This document shows, in pieces, positions 9,792 through 41,337 of a DNA stretch of 64,000 nucleotides (the first letter of the stretch is position 1; the number at the start of each line of letters is the position of its first letter). Made by a program: the position numbers and the translations under genes. The notes beneath the pieces were generated by a model, which was not told the DNA's origin, did not search any database, and saw nothing but the letters and a program-made list of their open reading frames with translations. Source of the stretch: Oscillospiraceae bacterium (lineage in GTDB: Bacteria > Bacillota > Clostridia > Oscillospirales > Oscillospiraceae); assembly GCA_031261745.1 (NCBI GenBank), contig JAISJC010000083.1, forward strand, positions 22,772 through 86,771, given 5' to 3'.

Positions 9792-12113
9792 TTACCCAAT
9801 TTTCCACCCCGTCAGCAACCACGTCTTTTTTTCTCCGTGTTCGTCAAGCGATAGAACCGCCTCGTACCCGTCCTTTTCGACGTGAATGGTTTTCTTAGCT
9901 GCGACGTACTTCACGATGTTTCCATCAACAACTGCATCAATGACTTTCGGCACGGTTTCGGCACCGTGCCTTTCCTCAATATGTACCAGGCCTTTCTTTT
10001 TATCGCCTTGAATAAGCGTTATGTCGTTTGTTCCCCCATACCGCTCCAAGTCGTCGCGGAGATTGCTAATTGTTACTTCGCTTTCTCCGGCTGACAGACG
10101 CTCAATCGCGTTCTCAACTTGCTTGTGCTTTTCGGCACTGCTACTTTCGCCGTTTTCGCCGCTGCCCGACCCGCCGCCGCTTCCGAACTTTCCATCTCCA
10201 TCGCGCGGTTGGTCGGGGTCGAAGTCATCGGTAACGCGTGTCGTTTCGCCATCACGCGCAAGGTAGTCAGCAAGCAAGCCGAGCGACTCCTTGAACGGCG
10301 GGAATAGGTCAATCGTTTTTAGCGCAGACGGCTCCACAAGTGTAAAGTCGCTCATCTCGCCGTCCGTGGCTATTTCTCCACGGTTCTTTCCGCATTTTGT
10401 GCAAAGAAAGATATGCGGAGAGCCGTATTCCTCGGAAAGTGTGTTCAGCTGATTCAGCGGCACAAGGTTTTCGGCAAGCAAGCCGAATTCCTCTTGCAAT
10501 TCACGCCGAGCGGCTTGCTCCGGCGTTTCTCCCAAGTCTATGTGACCGCCCGCGCTTGCCCACCCCTGCCCGTCGCTACGCTTGGCAATAAGGAATTTGC
10601 CGTCTTTCATCACGATTATTCCGACAGTCCCGGGTGCAAGGCTCGTGTCCTGTGCCATACTCGGCAAGTCCGCGTCTATATCACCGCCAACGCCCGCGCC
10701 GCCCATCAGACCCATCATAGGGTCGTTCATTGATTGTAGGTCTTTTGCCCATACGCCCGCGCCCTCGGCGATCATTTCGTCCGTGATGCTTGCGTACATT
10801 CCGCTTTCGTCGCTGAGGGCTTTGAGTTCTTTCAGAAACGCCTCTTGCGTCATTCCGTTGGCGTTGAAAACCTCAATCAGCGTCATCGACTTTTTGTGCG
10901 CGATTTCGGCTTTCTCACTTTCGGTCGGATTGCGGACATTGTCGTAAACGTAATCAATATCGTCGGGCAGAACGCCCCACGCTGACAGCGCAAGGATCGG
11001 GAGCAGCTGCTCAACGACCGGTGACAACTCAATTTCGCGGCGTTCCTCGGCGTAGTCGTAATAGTTCTGCAAGTCCGACTCGCCTGTCGCGTTCATTCCG
11101 GCGGGACTTCTCCCGAATAACTTTGTCGCGGGGATATGCGATGCTCCCGTAATATCCATCATCAGCGCATTGTAAACATCGGCAAGCCCGGCGAACGTAT
11201 ACTGATACTGTTGAAGCGTGTCGCCCTTGTTGAGTATCCGCGTTCCGAGGTTTGATTCAAGAACGCTTATCGCTTGCATCTGATTCCAAAAACGCCGTTG
11301 AACCTCGCCGCCGCCAATCGCAAACATCTGGTCAATGTTGTCCATTGTGAGAACGGTTTGGTTCGCCTTGAACGTGAGCGACGCGATATTTGCAGATACA
11401 TTGTCGTGCTTTACGATTTCCTCGTAAATCGCTTCGATTTCGCTTTGCCCCCAATGCAGCTCCGCAACACGCTCTACCCACGGCAATTCGCGCCCGATAA
11501 AGCGGATGCAGCGAGAGTGATGCGCTTTGTACTGAACCGACCCGGCTTCATTCCGAATCTCGTAGAATTCGGGGTACCCGTAGTTCGGATCGTTTATATC
11601 GCTCACAAGCGACATACTCGGGTATGCACCATTCCAACGGTCAACGATATACAAGCCGCGAAAGCTGTCCGGCATTATCTCGTCGAGGTTCAGCGGCTTT
11701 TCGAGGTCGTCTTGTCCGTCAATCAAAATCAACCCGATTGCGCCACCATAAAGCCGCCCCCACTTCATACCCTCGAGGACGGACTTGCGGAGACGTGTTG
11801 TCCGCATTAGCTTGTTGAGTTTACTGAGCATATCCGGCGCGACATTGGACGTGACCTTGAACCACTTTTTTGTGATATCCTCGGGGATTGTGTTAATCAC
11901 ATTTTGAACAATCCAATTCCCGCGATAAAGGCTATTGAGCAGTTGATAATTCTGCGTCAGCCGCATAAGCGGGTACTCGGTCGCTTGCATAAGGTTTTGT
12001 GTGCCAACGCCGAGCCGCGCGGCGGGGTTGCTGAACGCATCTGATGTTCGCGCCAAGTGAGTGGACGTGGTAGGCGTTCCGCGCGACACCGCTTTTAATT
12101 TTACTGTTGCCAC
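9792..12113 (-). CDS. Portal protein (DUF1073-like) fused to a NUDIX hydrolase domain and a C-terminal nuclease-like module
   Basis: 773 aa, placed right after terL. The portal-like region covers aa 1-~480. A perfect NUDIX box GGHIDLGETPEQAARRELQEEFGL sits at aa 522-545. This is followed by a DQPRDGDGKF linker plus Gly/Ser spacer, then a terminal module with GLVHIEERHG. Confidence 0.85.
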   Translation of the reverse strand: MATVKLKAVSRGTPTTSTHLARTSDAFSNPAARLGVGTQNLMQATEYPLMRLTQNYQLLNSLYRGNWIVQNVINTIPEDITKKWFKVTSNVAPDMLSKLNKLMRTTRLRKSVLEGMKWGRLYGGAIGLILIDGQDDLEKPLNLDEIMPDSFRGLYIVDRWNGAYPSMSLVSDINDPNYGYPEFYEIRNEAGSVQYKAHHSRCIRFIGRELPWVERVAELHWGQSEIEAIYEEIVKHDNVSANIASLTFKANQTVLTMDNIDQMFAIGGGEVQRRFWNQMQAISVLESNLGTRILNKGDTLQQYQYTFAGLADVYNALMMDITGASHIPATKLFGRSPAGMNATGESDLQNYYDYAEERREIELSPVVEQLLPILALSAWGVLPDDIDYVYDNVRNPTESEKAEIAHKKSMTLIEVFNANGMTQEAFLKELKALSDESGMYASITDEMIAEGAGVWAKDLQSMNDPMMGLMGGAGVGGDIDADLPSMAQDTSLAPGTVGIIVMKDGKFLIAKRSDGQGWASAGGHIDLGETPEQAARRELQEEFGLLAENLVPLNQLNTLSEEYGSPHIFLCTKCGKNRGEIATDGEMSDFTLVEPSALKTIDLFPPFKESLGLLADYLARDGETTRVTDDFDPDQPRDGDGKFGSGGGSGSGENGESSSAEKHKQVENAIERLSAGESEVTISNLRDDLERYGGTNDITLIQGDKKKGLVHIEERHGAETVPKVIDAVVDGNIVKYVAAKKTIHVEKDGYEAVLSLDEHGEKKTWLLTGWKIG

Positions 12114-19423: not shown

Positions 19424-19783
19424 CTAATACCACTCGCCCACACGGACAATCCAAACCTCGAACCACCCCGGTAAATTCTTTCCGCTATTATCAAGGCGTT
19501 TTTTGCTGCCGAAATCCTCTACAACGTAGCCGCCACGCGGTGTGCCGTCGCCATCTAACCAGTCCGTGCGGACTTGGTACTTGCACCACCCGCTAATAAC
19601 ATCCGCTTCGGAGAGGTGCGCTCCAAGCTCCGGGTTGAGGCATTCGGGCGAGAGGTAATCTTTATCCACAATGAATTTCGGCACCTCCGCTTTATTCGGG
19701 CATAGGTCTTTTCGTATGATGTAAGCGTTTCCGTCGCCATCGTAATCCCAAGCGTTCCACTCAAATTTAGGCTTTCTGCTCAT
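19424..19783 (-). CDS. Hypothetical protein
   Basis: ATG 19783 preceded by SD GGGAGG, with ATGA overlap onto the upstream stop; 119 aa. Confidence 0.45.
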   Translation of the reverse strand: MSRKPKFEWNAWDYDGDGNAYIIRKDLCPNKAEVPKFIVDKDYLSPECLNPELGAHLSEADVISGWCKYQVRTDWLDGDGTPRGGYVVEDFGSKKRLDNSGKNLPGWFEVWIVRVGEWY

Positions 19784-20637
19784 TTTTCTACCTCCCACGG
19801 AAATTCTTGTATCAGCGGTTCGCCCCATATCACCCCGAGCGAGGATTTCATAAAGATTGGTACCAGTTCCCACCTCGCCGCATCGACAATATCCTCGACC
19901 CACCCACGCTGCGGAATTATCTTGTCTTTCCGATTGCCCGTTTCCGCTCCGATTATCAGCCAGTCGAAATAGGTTCTCTCGTAGTTGTCTGTTATCGACT
20001 CGTGCAGAGGTTCAATACTCGCAAAGGCATTTACACTCGGCGTGAGGGAGCCTATTGCGTCGCTCGCACGCTGCGCCGACACCTTATCCGTTATACTCGC
20101 GCCATACCAAAAGTTCTCGTAGCGAGGCAGTAACGCCATCTCGTCAAGGTCTTGGTACCGTCCCGGATTCTTTGTTAAAAACAGGTACCGATGCTGCGGA
20201 GCCGCCGCGCAAGCGTCAAATACGTCTTTTATCCACGAAGTCGGAACCCAACTCCCGAACAGGTCGCACATACTGCCGACAAATATCGTGCGCGGTTCTT
20301 TCCACTTTTGCGGTTCGTCGAGGCGATAGCGGTGGAGCGTCGGCTCAAAGCCGAACGGGTATGGGTCAATTTTGCCGTTTTGCGGGTTGCCGAGCGGCAC
20401 ATCTAACTCCTTTTTCAAGAAAACCTTGTCGGCTTGCTCTTTGGTGAACCTCGTTTCTCGGAGAATGCGACCGCGCGGATCGCTTGCTGTATTCTCGAAA
20501 TACGTCGCTTTCTGCGACAGACACGAACCGCCGAACCGCCGTGCCATACTCCGCGCGTAGCAATACTCGCAGTCGTGGCGGCAACCGGTGACGGGATTCC
20601 AAGAGGCATCAAAAGTTTCAATTTTCGTTTTATTCAT
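19780..20637 (-). CDS. Gp37/Gp68 family protein (DUF5131) with radical-SAM-type CxxxCxxC motif
   Basis: Begins [32 protein letters not shown] overlap with the HNH gene stop. Confidence 0.7.
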
Positions 20638-21146
20638 TGCGCTTTTCCTCCCCACGTCCACGTTTTTCCTTTTGTGTTGTGACCACGAACATTTTTTCGT
20701 AATCTTCCCTTGCTGTCACGGCATTCAATACGTTGACCGCATCCGCAAGCGCAAAGAACTAACTCACGAGATAGCTTGCGAACTTTTTGATATTGAACTA
20801 ACCCCGTAGCCATTGCCGATTTCTGCTCCGATGTCATTTTCGACATATGCAAGCGTTTGTGTTCAGAGTTTCCGAGCATTTCAAGGTTTTCAATCCGATT
20901 ATCCGTTTTATCTCCGTTGATGTGGTGGACGTGTTCATCTTTTGTGAGAGGTCTCCCTAAATGGTTAGCCATTACCAAACGATGTTCAAAGACATAACCG
21001 CCCTTGCCGCTTTTATTAAATTTTGCCGCAGGGTATGTCGGCGCGTGTACCAATACATATCCCTGCTTTATATGAACCTTTTTTCGCGTAGGTGTGGTTT
21101 CCCACGGCGCGCTCGAATCGCGCCAGTCAATCTTTGTCTTGTTCAT
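20634..21146 (-). CDS. HNH endonuclease
   Basis: 170 aa with [26 protein letters not shown]. Confidence 0.8.
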
Positions 21147-22820: not shown

Positions 22821-23615
22821 CTATTCCTCCCGTTTTAAGTGCCGAAACCTTTTTGCGTCGTTTTCCATAGTTTCAAACGTAATCGGCAGATTTGCCATAA
22901 GCACGTCGTTGAAGTCCTGCACATACTTCTTGACAATCTCAAAGCCGTATGCCTTGCGCCCGAGTAGTTCCGCGCAATACAGCGTCATTCCGCTGCCCGC
23001 GCAGGGGTCAATCACCACATCGCCTATATCGGTGAACGTCGTTATCAGTTTGTTAATGACGTGTTTCGACTTCTGCGTCGGGTGCAGCTTCGGCGTTTCG
23101 TTGTCGCGTACATAGTCAATGCAGTTGAACACCATTTCGCCGCCATTCCGAAACTTCGGCAGCTTGTCCCGATAAAGCAGTACGGCGTATTCGCAGTTCC
23201 CAACCACTTTCATATTCGCTTTCAGTACTTGCGCCGACCAGTTTTTACGAAAGACGAGGTTTATGTAGTGACCGAAACCGTACTTTTTCCCTTGCTCTAT
23301 CAGCATAAACTGTTGTTCAAATTCGCAGAACACTATCATACAGCCCGCGTCGGACTTGCTTTTCGGCTCCGGTTTCAACATACGATTTGCGAAGTGCATA
23401 AACTCCGCGATGTTAAAGTTGCTGTCGGTGTTAAAGAATTGTTTACCCGCGAACTCGCTCTTGCCGTTTGCGTTATCGCCGTCCTTGTACCACTTCGGGT
23501 TGCTTGCGTACGCGTTTATACCCAAATTAAAGGGGATGTCCGCGATGATGAGCTGCGCCTTGGGGATTTGATAGGTTTTGAAGTTTTGGAAACTATCGTG
23601 AAACAGTTCAGCCAT
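22821..23615 (-). CDS. DNA methyltransferase, amino-MTase (N6-A or N4-C), beta-class motif order
   Basis: 264 aa. Motif IV-like IIADIPFN lies near the N-terminus and motif I VIDPCAGSGMT near the C-terminus. Confidence 0.75.
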   Translation of the reverse strand: MAELFHDSFQNFKTYQIPKAQLIIADIPFNLGINAYASNPKWYKDGDNANGKSEFAGKQFFNTDSNFNIAEFMHFANRMLKPEPKSKSDAGCMIVFCEFEQQFMLIEQGKKYGFGHYINLVFRKNWSAQVLKANMKVVGNCEYAVLLYRDKLPKFRNGGEMVFNCIDYVRDNETPKLHPTQKSKHVINKLITTFTDIGDVVIDPCAGSGMTLYCAELLGRKAYGFEIVKKYVQDFNDVLMANLPITFETMENDAKRFRHLKREE

Positions 23616-23618
23616 TTT

Positions 23619-23798
23619 TTACTCATCCTCTTGGCAAGTGACGCACACGTCCTCCCACTCACCGTTTGTTTTGCGGCTTTTCCACCCCGCCGTCTTTTTT
23701 GCCTGCACCGCGTCGTAGAAGTCAAACCCGCCGTCAAGTTCCTCGCCGCAAATGTCACACGTTGGCGTGAATATCCCGCCGAACTTTTCAATGCTCAT
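23619..23798 (-). CDS. Small zinc-ribbon protein (below the ORF-track size cutoff)
   Basis: Read by hand as MSIEKFGGIFTPTCDICGEELDGG...DVCVTCQEDE. ATGA overlap with the MazG-like stop; fills the 180-nt gap. Confidence 0.35.
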   Translation of the reverse strand: MSIEKFGGIFTPTCDICGEELDGGFDFYDAVQAKKTAGWKSRKTNGEWEDVCVTCQEDE

Positions 23799-24232
23799 AC
23801 GATTTTCCCTCCGTGGCGGTACGGCCGCGACTTGTTGTACTCCATTTTCAAGCGCACAACTTCGTCAATGTCAATTCCCTCTGCCGCGCAGGTATCGAGT
23901 ATGCGTATCAAGCAATCAGCAAGTTCTACCGCCACGCCCTCGGGTTTTGCTTTCGCGCAATGTTCGCCTCTGCCGTTGCGGAAATGGCACGGACTCTTAT
24001 CGTCATCGCATAAATAGCTCTCCTTACCGACCGCGTCATTAAAAGTATCGCACCCGAAGTAAAGCATCGGTTTTCTGTCGCGGTACTCCTCCATAGCTTC
24101 CGAAAGTTCACCGACCATATTCATAAGCGCGGCCGGCAACGGCGGGTTTCCGTTTTCATACCACCCGTGGTCGATTGCGTTTTCGTGTATTTCACGAGCA
24201 AGTCTGCCGAACGCATTTTCATTACTGTTCAT
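23795..24232 (-). CDS. MazG-like nucleoside triphosphate pyrophosphohydrolase
   Basis: ATG 24232; 145 aa. Motifs MVGELSEAMEEYR and VAVELADCLIRILD, with a ...KMEYNKSRPYRHGGK tail. Confidence 0.65.
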   Translation of the reverse strand: MNSNENAFGRLAREIHENAIDHGWYENGNPPLPAALMNMVGELSEAMEEYRDRKPMLYFGCDTFNDAVGKESYLCDDDKSPCHFRNGRGEHCAKAKPEGVAVELADCLIRILDTCAAEGIDIDEVVRLKMEYNKSRPYRHGGKIV

Positions 24233-29073: not shown

Positions 29074-29098
29074 TGACTTTCTCCTTTGCCGACTTTGA

Positions 29099-29197
29099 AA
29101 GGGGCGGCGGGAATTGAACCCGCTCTTCCGGCACTAATCACGGCGTGCATTGAAGCTGCCGTTTATCTCCGACGCTCTTCCTTTGAGCTACGCCCCC
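29099..29197 (-). tRNA. Aberrant tRNA-like gene: canonical acceptor, D and T arms, but a 45-nt extended helix in place of the anticodon arm
   Basis: Hand fold of the minus strand, 5' to 3'. Acceptor GGGGGCG, then TA, then D-arm GCTC-AAAGGAA-GAGC. A 45-nt imperfect hairpin tipped by CUUCAAU follows, then AAGA. T-arm is GCGGG-TTCAATT-CCCGC and the 3' acceptor strand is CGCCCCT. No CCA is encoded. Confidence 0.5.
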
Positions 29198-29363
29198 GTG
29201 TCGCCGTGTACCGCCTCAACCCGCCACGGCTCGGTAATCGTAAAGGTGCGGCTCCCACTCGCTATTTTGCAAACTCAAACGCCCTACTGCACTCAAGCCT
29301 CGCTGCTCGTTTGCATATTCACGAATCGCCCACGAGGTCATATGCCCTCATAGTGGGACGTAC

Positions 29364-29436
29364 TGGTGCAGGGGTTCGGAGTTCCACCGAACGCTATAAC
29401 GGGTTTCACGCCGCCAACTGCATAATGGCACCCTGC
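29364..29436 (-). ncRNA. Second tRNA-like element ending in an encoded CCA, without a recognisable anticodon arm
   Basis: Hand fold. Acceptor GCAGGG pairs with CCCTGC, followed by A-CCA. T-arm GTTCGG-TGGAACT-CCGAAC. D-arm-like ATGC-AGTTGGCG-GCGT. Only 15 nt remain where the anticodon arm should be. Confidence 0.35.
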
Positions 29437-29472
29437 ATATTGGCAGTTATCGTACTGCCGGACGTTGATTTT

Positions 29473-29676
29473 TTAATCTTTGTTTGCCTTGAACGCTTCG
29501 CGGTATGCCCTGTCCGAGTAAGCGTATTTCTTGCATAACGGCTTACTTTGTCGGAGAAGCTGTTTCGAGTACACGCACTCGCCCGTTGTTCGCGGCATAT
29601 TATTCAGCGATTGGCTATATCTCTTGAAGTGTTTGCAGCCGCCGCAGGTATACGGCTTATAGGACAGATACGCCAT
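29473..29676 (-). CDS. Small Cys-rich protein
   Basis: ATG 29676 lies 6 nt after the G11 tract; begins MAYLSYKPYTCGGCKHF... Confidence 0.45.
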   Translation of the reverse strand: MAYLSYKPYTCGGCKHFKRYSQSLNNMPRTTGECVYSKQLLRQSKPLCKKYAYSDRAYREAFKANKD

Positions 29677-30337
29677 CAATTACCCCCCCCCCCGCAGGGG
29701 TAACAACCCACACATCGCGGTTCGAGGTGACAGCGAAGCAGTCCTTGTCATTGTCGAACGCAATATCAACCATCGCGTCGCCGACACCCCTATCCTCGAC
29801 GACGTATTCCCCGAGTCCGTCTATGTAAATCACCGTGCCGAATGGGAGGTCTTTCATAGCCACGGTGCGCCCAACCGTCACCTGTACGCCGCTTTTGGTG
29901 ATTCCGTCAGCTTTTTTCTTTCCGACCTGCTTCGGGTCAGTCCAGTTATACCCGACGATTTTGTATTCGCCGAGATAAGTCATTCCCTCGCGGTACACGC
30001 CCCAGTCCTCCTCGACACGCTGATTATAGGCATCAATGCCGCGTCGCGCGTCTTCCGCTGTCAGCGTTCGTGGTTCCGGCTCCTCCGGCGTGGGTTCTAC
30101 TTGCTCGGGTGACGGCGTAAATGTCACGATCGGCGCGACAGTCGTTGCAACTGCGGGGCTTTCGTACTTGACCGTAACTTGCTCCGTCGGCGCAATCGAC
30201 GGTTCCGGCTCCCTCACGTCCTTGTGCTGCGTCGTCAAAGCCGCTGCCGCTATTGCGACGATGCAGCAAAATACGACTCCGACAAACTGTGAGTCGGCAC
30301 GTTTGCGCCCTGTGTAGGGCTTTGTCTTTCGTTTCAT
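29657..30337 (-). CDS. Membrane-anchored 3D-domain (MltA/YocH-type) protein
   Basis: 226 aa. N-terminal TM segment VGVVFCCIVAIAAAAL, a Pro/Glu-rich linker, and a C-terminal GRTVAMKDLPFGTVIYIDGLGEYVVEDRG pattern. Confidence 0.6.
   Translation of the reverse strand: MKRKTKPYTGRKRADSQFVGVVFCCIVAIAAAALTTQHKDVREPEPSIAPTEQVTVKYESPAVATTVAPIVTFTPSPEQVEPTPEEPEPRTLTAEDARRGIDAYNQRVEEDWGVYREGMTYLGEYKIVGYNWTDPKQVGKKKADGITKSGVQVTVGRTVAMKDLPFGTVIYIDGLGEYVVEDRGVGDAMVDIAFDNDKDCFAVTSNRDVWVVTPAGGGVIDGVSVL
29683..29693 (-). repeat. Homopolymeric G11 tract at the 3' end of the 3D-domain gene and the SD position of the next gene
   Basis: Counted directly: C at 29683-29693. Confidence 0.95.
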
Positions 30338-35988: not shown

Positions 35989-36444
35989 CTATATCGCCGC
36001 CGCAGCGGTTGTTTCCAAATTCAAGTGGCTCAACAGCACGATTGTATTTGTGAGGTTGTCGAGCAGTTCGCGCTGATAGTTCTGCCACATATCCCATTCG
36101 CCGAACCGAACGAGCCGCCGTAAGTCGGGGATTAACTTCTCGCTCTCGCTAACATCGTGTTCAAAAGCGATAAACGCCTGTTCGAGCGACATTCGGGGTA
36201 GTTTCGCGCCGCCCGTCAATGCAGAAAACATCGGGTCTTTCTCGTAGTAGAGCGAAATCAGCTCCATACTTTTGTAAACCCAAGCGGCTGTCGTCCAAAT
36301 GTCGGGAGCCGTCTCCTTGACTTCGCCGCTCTCGTGCCGAGCCAACTGCCGTTCGCTAAGTCCTAACCGTGAAGCGGCAGCTTCAAGGGTCAGCCCCGCC
36401 GCTAAACGTCCGCTTTTGAGTTCGTTTGAACCGTGTAATGTCAT
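35989..36444 (-). CDS. XRE-family HTH protein
   Basis: ATG 36444 preceded by SD AAAGGAGG. HTH segment AAGLTLEAAASRLGLSERQLARHESGE. Confidence 0.55.
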   Translation of the reverse strand: MTLHGSNELKSGRLAAGLTLEAAASRLGLSERQLARHESGEVKETAPDIWTTAAWVYKSMELISLYYEKDPMFSALTGGAKLPRMSLEQAFIAFEHDVSESEKLIPDLRRLVRFGEWDMWQNYQRELLDNLTNTIVLLSHLNLETTAAAAI

Positions 36445-38963: not shown

Positions 38964-39761
38964 ATGGACTTGATTTATAATACTGTTGAGGAAATACTTG
39001 CAATTCCGATTCCAAAATACGAGCGGTCGTCGGAAATATCGTCACCTCACGAAAATATCGAGTACATTTTACAGCGGATGGCTCTCCCGTATCGACACGC
39101 GGGGCGAATGGACTTGGCTATTGCGTGTTTGCGGAAGTCAAACGAAATATTCCCCCATTCAAATTTTTCTTGGTCTGCTGATGATTATTTGCGCCTTGTT
39201 ATGTACCTTCGGCTCGACGGTAAACCCGATGAAGCGAAAACAGAGTTGCGCGGGCTTCGAGAGCAATTCGCGCCCAAGGACGGTGAGCGCGATACAAACA
39301 GGCTTCTCTCCTACTCAAAATTCACGGAAGCCGACCTCGACAAAGCGGAACATATTCGTGCGTGCTGTAAGCGACATCATATTTTAATGAATCAGAATAC
39401 CGGCGGGTTTCCCGATCCACACGCAATAAAAAGTCTTGGCATTTTGATTTATACGGACAAGCTAACGTATGACACGTTAATTCGTGATTACCCCGGGTTC
39501 GTTGACGACATTGCAGAATCCTCCGACGCGCTCTCGGCATCCCAAACGCTTGAGGTGCTGATTGAAAATATCCGCGACAGCGAGGAGCGGCTTGCCCCAC
39601 GCGTTCAAATGCAAAACGATTACGAGGAGTATAAAGCAATGTGCGCGGCTCTCGGTGATTTAATGCCTAAAACGTTTCAGACATTCCATAAACACAAGAT
39701 CGCCAACAATGATAAGTACCGATTGTGGCACGACGAATACACCTCCGCGATCGCGGAGTAG
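38964..39761 (+). CDS. Lysogeny-module (moron) protein with a C-terminal motif shared with the MuF head protein
   Basis: ATG 38964 preceded by SD AGGAGAA; 265 aa. The C-terminal NDYEEYK...LGDLMPKTFQTFHKHKIANNDKY matches the C-terminus of MuF. Confidence 0.55.
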   Translation: MDLIYNTVEEILAIPIPKYERSSEISSPHENIEYILQRMALPYRHAGRMDLAIACLRKSNEIFPHSNFSWSADDYLRLVMYLRLDGKPDEAKTELRGLREQFAPKDGERDTNRLLSYSKFTEADLDKAEHIRACCKRHHILMNQNTGGFPDPHAIKSLGILIYTDKLTYDTLIRDYPGFVDDIAESSDALSASQTLEVLIENIRDSEERLAPRVQMQNDYEEYKAMCAALGDLMPKTFQTFHKHKIANNDKYRLWHDEYTSAIAE

Positions 39762-39795
39762 CGTTAAACGCAGAAAGGGCAGACGAGGGCGGTAT

Positions 39796-41337
39796 ATGAA
39801 AGAAACCATCGAACAGAACATTGAGCATCCGGAAATTGCTATTTATCTACGCAAATCAAGAGACGAGGAAAACGCCGGGCTTGAGGAAACTCTCGCCCGG
39901 CATCGTGCCGTTCTGCTCGGAATAGTCGATTCTCTGAAGCTCGTTCTCGTAGACATTTACGAAGAAGTCGTCAGCGGCGAGAGCCTTTTCCGTCGTCCCG
40001 AAATGCTGAAACTGTTGGAGTCCGTACAGGCGAATAAATACGACGCTGTTTTGTGTATGGATATTGACCGCCTCGGACGAGGCGGTATGCAAGATCAAGG
40101 TCTTATTCTTGATACATTCAAGCAGTCCGAAACGAAAATCATCACGCCCGAGCGCACCTACGACCTCACGCTTGATTTTGACGAGCAGATTACCGAAATG
40201 CAAACTTTCATTTCGCGGCAAGAATACAAGATGATTCGGAAAAGACTTCGGCGCGGCCTCGATACCACAATTTCGGAGGGCGGCTACGTCGCAAATCCCC
40301 CATACGGGTACCGCAGAACGACCGTCAACAAAAAGCCGTCGCTCGAAATTTACGAACCCGAAGCCCATTTTATCCGTATGATTTTTGATATGTATTGTGC
40401 CGGGGACGGAACGACAGCAATCGCCGATACGCTTAATCACCTCGGAGCCGTGCCGCACCGTTCATCTCAATGGAATCGGAACAGCGTCCGTCATATACTG
40501 CTGAACCCGACATTTTGCGGGAAAGTCGTTTGGTACAAAAAGCAACACATACGCCCCGGCAGACGCGGGAACGCAAAAACAATAACGGTCTACAACCCCG
40601 TCGAAAAATGGCTTATATACGACGGTTTACACCCCGCCATTATCAGCGAGGAGCAGTTTCAAGAAGCCGCCGAGGTACGCTCGGGACGGAGAACGCCTTA
40701 TCGACGGAATGCGGATGTCGCAAACCCCCTCGCCGGTCTTGTAGTGTGCGCCGTGTGCGGCTCAAAAATGCAACGTCAAGGCTCGAACAAGGGTACCGCC
40801 TACTTGCTATGCCCGAAAGCGGGATGCGTGGCAGGGGCGAAATTTGAGTATGTGGAAACGGTATTGATTGGGCAGCTGCACGAGGAATTGAAGAGTATCC
40901 CTGTGGACGACGCGGCTCTCGCTCCGCTCCGCACTTTTGACTACGCCGCCGTTGCAGACGGCATAAACAAAGCACTCAACAGATCCCAAGCGCAAAAGGA
41001 GCAACTGTACAATTTCTTGGAGCAGGGCGTTTACGACGTTCAGACGTACAGACAGCGAATGGCTGCTTTGTCGGAAAGAATTGCAGACCTCGAACAGCAA
41101 CTCGAAAAGAACGAGAAGTCGCGCAGAAACGAGGAGCGAAGCAGCGTCACCGCGCTCCGCTCACGGCTCACCAATGTCCTCGAAGTTTATGATGAATCCG
41201 ATGCCGCCGGACGTAATTCACTGCTGAAAAGCGTTATCGAGCACGTCTATTACAGCAAGGCGAAAAAGACTAAGCCCCGTGATTTCTCATTGCAAATACA
41301 GCTTAAACTCATACCCTCTAATTCGCGTAATCCTTAG
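39796..41337 (+). CDS. Large serine recombinase (prophage integrase)
   Basis: 513 aa. N-terminal resolvase domain IAIYLRKSRDEE (catalytic Ser), a recombinase domain, a zinc ribbon CAVCGSKM...CPKAGC, and a coiled-coil tail. Confidence 0.9.
   Translation: MKETIEQNIEHPEIAIYLRKSRDEENAGLEETLARHRAVLLGIVDSLKLVLVDIYEEVVSGESLFRRPEMLKLLESVQANKYDAVLCMDIDRLGRGGMQDQGLILDTFKQSETKIITPERTYDLTLDFDEQITEMQTFISRQEYKMIRKRLRRGLDTTISEGGYVANPPYGYRRTTVNKKPSLEIYEPEAHFIRMIFDMYCAGDGTTAIADTLNHLGAVPHRSSQWNRNSVRHILLNPTFCGKVVWYKKQHIRPGRRGNAKTITVYNPVEKWLIYDGLHPAIISEEQFQEAAEVRSGRRTPYRRNADVANPLAGLVVCAVCGSKMQRQGSNKGTAYLLCPKAGCVAGAKFEYVETVLIGQLHEELKSIPVDDAALAPLRTFDYAAVADGINKALNRSQAQKEQLYNFLEQGVYDVQTYRQRMAALSERIADLEQQLEKNEKSRRNEERSSVTALRSRLTNVLEVYDESDAAGRNSLLKSVIEHVYYSKAKKTKPRDFSLQIQLKLIPSNSRNP

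Follow-up and report, generated by a model that had tools for sequence, protein, structure and literature searches.

A gene with the body of a transfer RNA (tRNA) but with a long hairpin in the place of the anticodon arm lies on the minus strand of a 64-kb stretch of contig JAISJC010000083.1 of an Oscillospiraceae bacterium. This whole stretch is referred to as the window, and the tRNA-like gene, located at 29099-29197, is numbered within it. We interpret the gene, with a probability of about one half, as a rearranged, non-decoding tRNA gene, that is, a relic whose RNA may still undergo processing. Its tRNA body far exceeds what chance would give, whereas the hairpin in the arm does not. In addition, the core of this hairpin contains a diverged copy of the gene's own T-arm.

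Comparison of the window with the Rfam covariance models identified positions 29197-29099 as a match to RF00005 (tRNA) with 47.2 bits, which is above the gathering score of 29 (E = 6e-7 for the 64-kb window). It is the sole Rfam match in the window, spans model positions 1-71 and is not truncated; at the centre of the anticodon arm (inner stem pair and loop), the alignment accommodates 37 nucleotides (nt) compared to 9 in the model. The match falls on exactly those coordinates at which the initial annotation, which was made from the bare sequence, had placed a tRNA-like gene. ARAGORN was run as well and, in its default mode, called neither a tRNA nor a transfer-messenger RNA (tmRNA) anywhere in the window. 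The minimum free energy (MFE) structure predicted by RNAfold is a cloverleaf with -40.6 kcal/mol (z = -2.4). Sequence and predicted structure confirm the acceptor stem, the D-arm, the T-arm, and the AAGA variable loop as first described (Table 1), and also the absence of an encoded CCA: U73 is directly followed by UCA. All elbow and core positions that we read from the sequence are present (U8, A14, G18, G19, A21, G26, G46, G53-C61, U54, U55, C56, and A58). The acceptor stem shows G1-U72, G2-C71, G3-C70, and the discriminator U73; it lacks G3-U70, and there is no long variable arm. These features presumably fit none of the identity sets of synthetases that ignore the anticodon, which we take to be G3-U70 for AlaRS and the long variable arm for SerRS.

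Table 1. Position of the tRNA-like gene, its parts and nearby features in the window, followed by further loci with a single long arm
Feature	Position	Strand	Basis or remark
Whole tRNA-like gene, 99 nt	29099..29197	(-)	RF00005 match and MFE cloverleaf
Acceptor stem, 5' strand GGGGGCG	29191..29197	(-)	7 pairs with CGCCCCU at 29100-29106; G1-U72 wobble
D-arm GCUC-AAAGGAA-GAGC	29174..29188	(-)	G18 and G19 present; sequence, Rfam alignment, fold
45-nt arm instead of a 17-nt anticodon arm	29128..29172	(-)	RNAfold
Diverged internal T-arm copy	29141..29159	(-)	Local alignment; forms the apex of the long arm
Variable loop AAGA, 4 nt	29124..29127	(-)	Sequence, Rfam alignment, fold
T-arm GCGGG-UUCAAUU-CCCGC	29107..29123	(-)	G53-C61, U54, U55, C56, A58 present
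Acceptor stem, 3' strand CGCCCCU, and discriminator U73	29099..29106	(-)	Sequence, Rfam alignment
Apparently non-coding stretch of ~275 nt, from the 68-amino-acid ORF (open reading frame) to the tRNA-like gene	29198..29472	(-)	ORF list
Spacer of 25 nt with Shine-Dalgarno sequence AAAGGAG of the 132-amino-acid gene	29074..29098	(-)	Sequence
DUF7576-like gene, 132 amino acids	28675-29073	(-)	ORF list and Pfam
Large serine recombinase	39709-41337		Protein family scan
Viral long-arm loci: L005, L008, L012-L015, L019, L020, L023, L025, L027, L035, L039, L043, L045, L047, L052, L060, L061, L067, L070, L077			
Bacterial long-arm loci: L125, L134, L139, L149, L152, L157			

From base to tip, the long arm is composed of the helix UCGG/CCGG, a 3x3 internal loop (AGA/GUG), UAA/UUA, a GA bulge, ACGGC/GCCGU, an A/AC internal loop, GC/GC, and the terminal loop UUCAAU. 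The three longer helices had been drawn by hand in the initial annotation and were reproduced in the MFE fold. Its reading of the apex as CUUCAAU, a 7-nt loop of anticodon shape, did not hold, because such a loop would be closed by G opposite G; RNAfold instead predicts a loop of 6 nt, UUCAAU, on two G-C pairs. Likewise, the long helix proved not to be a remarkable feature, since its stability lies within the range of shuffled sequences. The 45-nt arm had a z-score of -1.6, with 81 of 1000 dinucleotide shuffles being as stable, and when only the inner 37 nt were shuffled and the four basal base pairs (bp) were kept fixed, the z-score was -0.9 (185 of 1000 shuffles as stable). Almost any insert of the same composition would form such a hairpin. 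The arm alone matched no Rfam family. A search for antisense pairing between the arm apex and all translation start regions of the window gave a best duplex of -27.0 kcal/mol compared to -25.4 ± 2.3 kcal/mol for shuffled probes, 47 of 200 of which performed as well, and a 12-mer match at 36375 was within chance expectation. On present evidence, the arm is under no detectable selection.

The gene does not contain a 5-bp anticodon stem with a 7-nt loop that carries U33 and a purine at position 37. With an arm that is ~28 nt too long and without a U33 loop, an anticodon cannot reach the ribosomal decoding centre. A UCA anticodon, as suspected in the apical loop at first, would read UGA, and the initial annotation had already doubted such recoding. 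This doubt is supported by the stop codons of the surrounding prophage, 18 of whose 43 ORFs end in TGA, eight of them in ATGA overlaps, so that UGA recoding is unlikely.

Removal of an intron did not recover a normal tRNA either. All contiguous deletions that would shorten the arm to 17 nt in the canonical register were generated, and U33 was present in none of the products, which bears out the earlier statement that no simple intron restores a 7-nt loop with U33. In a relaxed register, four solutions were obtained with the loops AUAUUAG (twice), AUAAUAG, and AUAAAAG; each has 2 nt between the D-stem and the anticodon stem, a 5-nt variable loop, a stem with an A-G mismatch, and an anticodon that begins with A34. 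ARAGORN in intron mode returned a forced Leu(aag) call, in which a 14-nt intron interrupts the anticodon and the variable arm is poorly paired. We do not regard any of these solutions as credible. An archaeal-type intron was rejected because the fold, as we read it, shows a symmetric 3x3 loop, a 2-nt bulge, and a 1x2 loop and no bulge-helix-bulge, which would consist of 3-nt bulges 4 bp apart. The archaeal intron-containing tRNAs that were compared hold a normal CU-NNN-A loop 5' of the intron, unlike the tRNA-like gene, and to our knowledge the archaeal splicing endonuclease is missing from bacteria. A group I intron was rejected since the insert of 28-37 nt is far below the ~200 nt or more of such self-splicing introns and no Intron_gpI match appeared even at E <= 10. 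Among the window proteins scanned, we detected neither an RNA ligase nor a splicing enzyme. Together, these findings speak against a processed precursor of any simple form, which was one of three roles initially proposed for the gene.

Two further identities were examined and rejected. A selenocysteine tRNA is contradicted by the acceptor/T arrangement of 7/5 rather than 8/5, the D-stem of 4 bp rather than 6 bp, the 4-nt variable loop, and the lack of a closing stem for CUUCAAU, and the best clan match of the gene is the generic tRNA family. A tmRNA is contradicted by the length of only 99 nt and the lack of an ARAGORN tmRNA call, the sole tmRNA_permuted match being one to the T-arm alone with 11.9 bits.

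The origin of the insert became apparent from a local alignment of the inner 37 nt with the remainder of the gene, for which shuffled inserts served as control. Positions 29159-29141 (GCAGCTTCAATGCACGCCG) aligned with the gene's own T-arm and the first two bases of the acceptor 3' strand (29123-29105, GCGGGTTCAATTCCCGCCG), and 15 of the 19 bases are identical. The alignment score of 22 compares with 11.4 ± 2.1 for shuffled inserts and was reached by none of 2000 shuffles; in a second run of the test, 1 of 300 shuffles reached it. In an ungapped comparison by eye at an offset of 36 nt, the identity extends to 17 of 23 bases. Three of the five T-stem pairs have been lost in the internal copy, whereas the real T-arm is perfect. 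Since the core of the insert is thus a decayed T-arm copy, the gene would have arisen by internal duplication or recombination within a tRNA sequence.

The test was then extended to 80 oversized tRNA-like sequences. Tandem or truncated tRNA fragments (L133, L017, L078, L112, L006, and L028), which served as the comparison set, make up most of the further cases that reached significance, and the test was not significant for the well-formed long-hairpin examples L020, L134, L149, L152, and L025. Its significant internal T-arm copy therefore groups the tRNA-like gene with rearranged tRNA genes. The fragmentary cases have either a 5' half ahead of a complete tRNA or a duplicated T-arm and 3' end, an arrangement typical of integration-site duplications.

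These results suggest the following course of events. An internal duplication or recombination would have put a piece of the T-arm into the anticodon loop, which would have turned the gene into a non-decoding one. The gene would be transcribed along with its neighbours in the early operon, and its intact body is probably still recognised by processing enzymes. RNase P, RNase Z, and the CCA-adding enzyme mature the tRNAs of Firmicutes. Here, RNase P would act at the 5' end, and RNase Z followed by the CCA-adding enzyme would be expected at the 3' end, given that the gene lacks an encoded CCA and that its discriminator is followed by a U. Processing would release a tRNA-shaped RNA of ~99 nt and would sever the operon transcript at a point 25 nt ahead of the next start codon. 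Among the three roles in the initial annotation, the degenerate tRNA is thus the best supported one, by the T-arm copy, the arm without excess stability, and the failure to find a homologue.

In the search for homologues, a pattern of D-arm and T-loop with a free arm had no match in the genomes of 185,579 species and retrieved only two unrelated sequences from Joint Genome Institute (JGI) metagenomes. An arm-anchored pattern gave chance matches only in IMG/VR viral contigs, a pattern of acceptor stem and T-stem gave no matches, and blastn against GenBank phages yielded nothing useful. Relatives of the two flanking proteins of 132 and 226 amino acids are encoded by genes that abut or overlap their neighbours, without a gap and without a match to an RNA family; no homologue was found for the upstream ORF of 68 amino acids, and 26 viral contigs with a related DnaD-like gene contained nothing comparable. 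The only other copy of the tRNA-like gene resides on a Logan contig (L095), which is 100% identical over 7174 bp. This second copy argues against an assembly artefact. Because no diverged homologue was found and the only copy is identical, there is no variation from which covariation could be derived. Among 495 ARAGORN calls, the closest body is that of the viral locus L079.

Several observations weigh against a mere relic. The body of the gene shows no decay, as all 21 stem pairs are intact, and at each of the three stem positions with inferable ancestry the change occurred in the copy. This asymmetry between body and copy weakly hints that the body was kept under selection after the rearrangement, at a level of ~1 chance in 8 that is biased by ascertainment. 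Phage genomes are compact, yet the gene has been kept along with 275 nt of non-coding DNA. Furthermore, transcription and processing of the gene are themselves inferred. Other observations of this kind come from related shapes. One motif scan of IMG/VR yielded 64 distinct sequences of oversized tRNA-like genes, and in 22 of them a single long arm takes the place of the anticodon arm. Near-perfect hairpins occur in bacteria, namely in Verrucomicrobiota (L134), Saccharibacteria (L149), and Obscuribacteraceae (L152). In the viral locus L048 (7076-7215 of a 36-kb contig), a promoter-like TTGACG-17-TAGTAT ends ~10 nt before the 5' end, which suggests an independently transcribed RNA. Finally, a family of phage tRNA-like RNAs at six loci (L025 at 2670-2746, L047 at 2175-2251, L250, L252, L254, and L257) has an arm of ~10 bp with the invariant 19-nt loop AGAGUUAAAYGAGAACGAA and shows three compensatory base pairs across five sequences, with only 4-5 good pairs in the acceptor stem. 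Functional RNAs of this shape probably exist.

It is therefore possible, if on balance unlikely, that the tRNA-like gene encodes a selected tRNA mimic, the intact body of which would be excised, CCA-tailed, and stabilised by host enzymes, while the arm would keep the RNA off the ribosome. The RNA would then serve as a decoy or sponge for a factor that binds or cleaves tRNA, or present the hairpin with its T-loop-like UUCAAU apex to a partner. Besides the perfect body next to the decayed internal T-arm copy and the recurrence of the shape, this explanation can draw on phage tRNAs that counter tRNA-targeting defences, as described in three reports (PMC10264068; PMC13096335; PMC11455837). Those phage tRNAs, however, are decoders and not armless mimics. 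Moreover, the arm is no more stable than its shuffled versions, its apex does not mimic an anticodon stem-loop given the G-G closure of the 7-nt reading, and it has no meaningful alignment with the arm of L048, the most similar-looking one. The lack of a homologue leaves no covariation to be assessed, and the proteins scanned revealed no gene for defence, RNA repair or a toxin. Of the interpretations in the initial annotation, the degenerate tRNA and the doubt about UGA recoding thus stood, the precursor fell, and the decoy or sponge, with no defence or tRNA-targeting gene found nearby, gained no support and is kept as a rival. Somewhat more doubtful still is a broader proposal according to which the gene would be functional and belong to an as yet undescribed class of RNAs of phages and bacteria. 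The tRNA body would provide a scaffold for processing and stability, the hairpin with its second, T-loop-like UUCAAU apex would replace the anticodon stem-loop, and the RNA would stay off the ribosome and act as a decoy, sponge or ligand for a host or defence factor that recognises tRNA. Our literature searches retrieved no account of tRNA-like RNAs of phages whose anticodon arm is greatly elongated, nor of a class that combines an intact tRNA body with a hairpin in place of the anticodon stem-loop.

The long-armed loci share further traits. They have a good D-arm, T-arm, and acceptor stem, the hairpin between D-stem and T-stem measures 38-65 nt, and most lack an encoded CCA; the near-perfect hairpins include one capped by UUCG (L020). 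The promoter-like site of L048 is divergent from a promoter-like site on the opposite strand. The tRNA-like genes L001, L040, and L068 (viral) and L114 (from a Clostridia metagenome-assembled genome of water-buffalo cecum) share a conserved loop GUAGUGSCGCGAAAC, more diverged in L068, which is placed between an anticodon-like region and the T-arm and whose stem covaries (AAGGA/UCCUU, GAGCG/CGCUC, GAAGG/CCUUC, and AAGCA/UGCUU). Four phage tRNAs on viral contigs (L004, L024, L026, and L079) have a CUCUAAA or CCCUAAA loop with the anticodon CUA, which would read the amber codon, a long variable arm, and an encoded CCA, and are candidate amber suppressors.

A role in cis has also to be weighed. 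The neighbours of the gene, the 68-amino-acid ORF upstream (29473-29679) and the 132-amino-acid gene downstream, lie on the same strand, and we found neither a promoter-like nor a terminator-like site flanking the gene on the minus strand. Given the sense orientation and the lack of an own promoter-like site, co-transcription with the early operon would be the simplest expectation. The gene might then act as a processing signal at which cleavage of the early polycistron by RNase P and RNase Z would uncouple the upstream replication genes from the downstream RusA and methylase genes, the content of the arm being irrelevant. Consistent with this, the 3' end lies 25 nt from the next start codon with a strong Shine-Dalgarno sequence in between, and an unconstrained arm fits the shuffle results. 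In addition, a stem-loop GCCGUG...CACGGC at 29203-29230 (minus strand) ends 5 nt upstream of G1, so that an RNase P cut at G1 would leave it at the 3' end of the upstream product as a cap. The relatives of the flanking genes, however, do without such an element, and the 93 nt enclosing the stem-loop are not unusually stable (z = +0.9), which makes this explanation improbable. The explanation that survives least well, a precursor from which a working tRNA would be made by unconventional excision and ligation of most of the arm, is very improbable: it could invoke the off-register solutions with their 26-nt intron, the call in ARAGORN intron mode, and a GAT direct repeat that flanks a 28-nt unit, but every solution breaks tRNA geometry, has a stem mismatch or needs an A34 anticodon, and the missing bulge-helix-bulge, the bacterial host, the insert too short for a group I intron, and the lack of an RNA ligase among the proteins scanned all stand against it.

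The stretch of 275 nt upstream of the gene matched no Rfam family, and the fold z-scores within it were between +0.9 and -1.65. We rejected the idea that it is a graveyard of tRNA copies, as its best alignment with the tRNA-like gene scored below the mean of shuffled sequences. Positions 29364-29436 (minus strand, 73 nt) can be drawn as a weak cloverleaf with a GCAGGG/CCCUGC stem, a hairpin GUUCGG-UGGAACU-CCGAAC beside the 3' strand of this stem, and then ACCA; it is not significant (z = -1.1), has no Rfam family, and may be due to chance.

On a larger scale, the window carries a prophage with genes for a tail sheath, a portal protein, a terminase, RecT, an SbcC-like ATPase, a DnaD-like initiator, a G39P-like loader, RusA, and C5 DNA methylases. 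The flank encodes SipL, RecR, ArgRS, and EPSP synthase, which point to a spore-forming host within the Clostridia. The tRNA-like gene occupies a central position in the prophage and is separated by ~10 kb from the serine recombinase gene. An association with an integration site or an att-type repeat was not observed, as the upstream flank is dissimilar and the window contains no other tRNA. None of the window proteins scanned was identified as an RNA ligase, RtcB, Ro60, an anticodon nuclease or a PADLOC defence protein. Elsewhere in the prophage, the portal protein (Phage_portal_3; 9792-12113, minus strand) is fused to a C-terminal NUDIX hydrolase domain. A 318-amino-acid ORF at 23061-24017 lies on the plus strand, opposite to the surrounding prophage genes; it has no match in Pfam, PHROG or PADLOC and may be a moron or accessory gene. 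A gene at 19780-20661 (minus strand) for a DUF5131 protein (phage Gp37/Gp68 family) with a weak radical-SAM-like N-terminus adjoins an HNH endonuclease gene.

If the gene is a relic, it holds a lesson for annotation, because a covariance model confidently calls a tRNA that cannot decode, and the internal T-arm copy illustrates one way in which phage tRNA genes get scrambled. If its body is under selection, it would represent a natural tRNA used purely as a shape, be it as processing handle, decoy or scaffold, and would point to the wider long-armed set in phages and bacteria. This wider set is a more promising lead than the gene in the window.

Comparison with known systems places the gene as follows. 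It resembles canonical bacterial and phage tRNAs in the 7-bp acceptor stem, the 4-bp D-stem, the 5-bp T-stem, the UUCAAUU loop, the 4-nt variable loop, and the positions U8, A14, and G53-C61, and it is CCA-less like many tRNA genes of Firmicutes. Unlike in a canonical tRNA, the arm measures 45 rather than 17 nt, a 7-nt loop with U33 is absent, an anticodon cannot be assigned, and default ARAGORN rejects the gene. The Y RNA YrlA of bacteria reportedly mimics tRNA by joining a tRNA-like acceptor/D/T body to a long helix and is said to have relatives in some phages. In YrlA, the RNA ends are reported to lie on the long helix that binds Ro60 (Rsr), with a loop-capped acceptor-like stem and rsr nearby. 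In contrast, the ends of the RNA considered here lie on the acceptor stem, no Y RNA family was matched, and no TROVE/Rsr gene was found among the window proteins scanned, so that a YrlA or Y RNA identity was rejected on topology, family, and rsr alike. YrlA is the subject of a study on a bacterial Y RNA as a tRNA mimic (Chen et al. 2014, PMC4201824). In shape, the gene is like engineered tRNA scaffolds, in which a hairpin replaces the anticodon stem-loop and which are reported to be processed and to accumulate stably in E. coli; these are man-made, and for the insert described here there is no evidence of function.

Like the phage tRNAs that counter anticodon nucleases and further tRNA-targeting defences such as PARIS (PMC11455837) and Septu (PMC13096335; see also PMC10264068), the gene is phage-encoded, tRNA-shaped, and different from host tRNAs in the anticodon region. 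The counter-defence tRNAs are reported to decode and to differ by point changes only within an otherwise normal loop. The gene has no anticodon loop at all, and we rejected this identity because a functional loop with changes at the nuclease site is absent. Partial and non-canonical tRNA genes that arise through recombination or through the integration of mobile elements have been catalogued (van der Gulik et al. 2023, PMC9897764). In common with these rearranged genes, the tRNA-like gene is tRNA-derived, is scored as a tRNA without being a standard decoder, contains a duplicated tRNA piece, and resides in a mobile element. It differs from typical cases, in which a truncated half or a duplicated 3' end lies next to a complete gene (L133 and L017, for example), in that its duplicated piece is internal, at the site of the anticodon loop, and in that both gene ends and the whole body are intact. 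With an internal copy and no anticodon arm, it is tRNA-derived, has a duplicated segment, and is no complete canonical tRNA. Overall, partial or rearranged tRNA genes are the closest known category.

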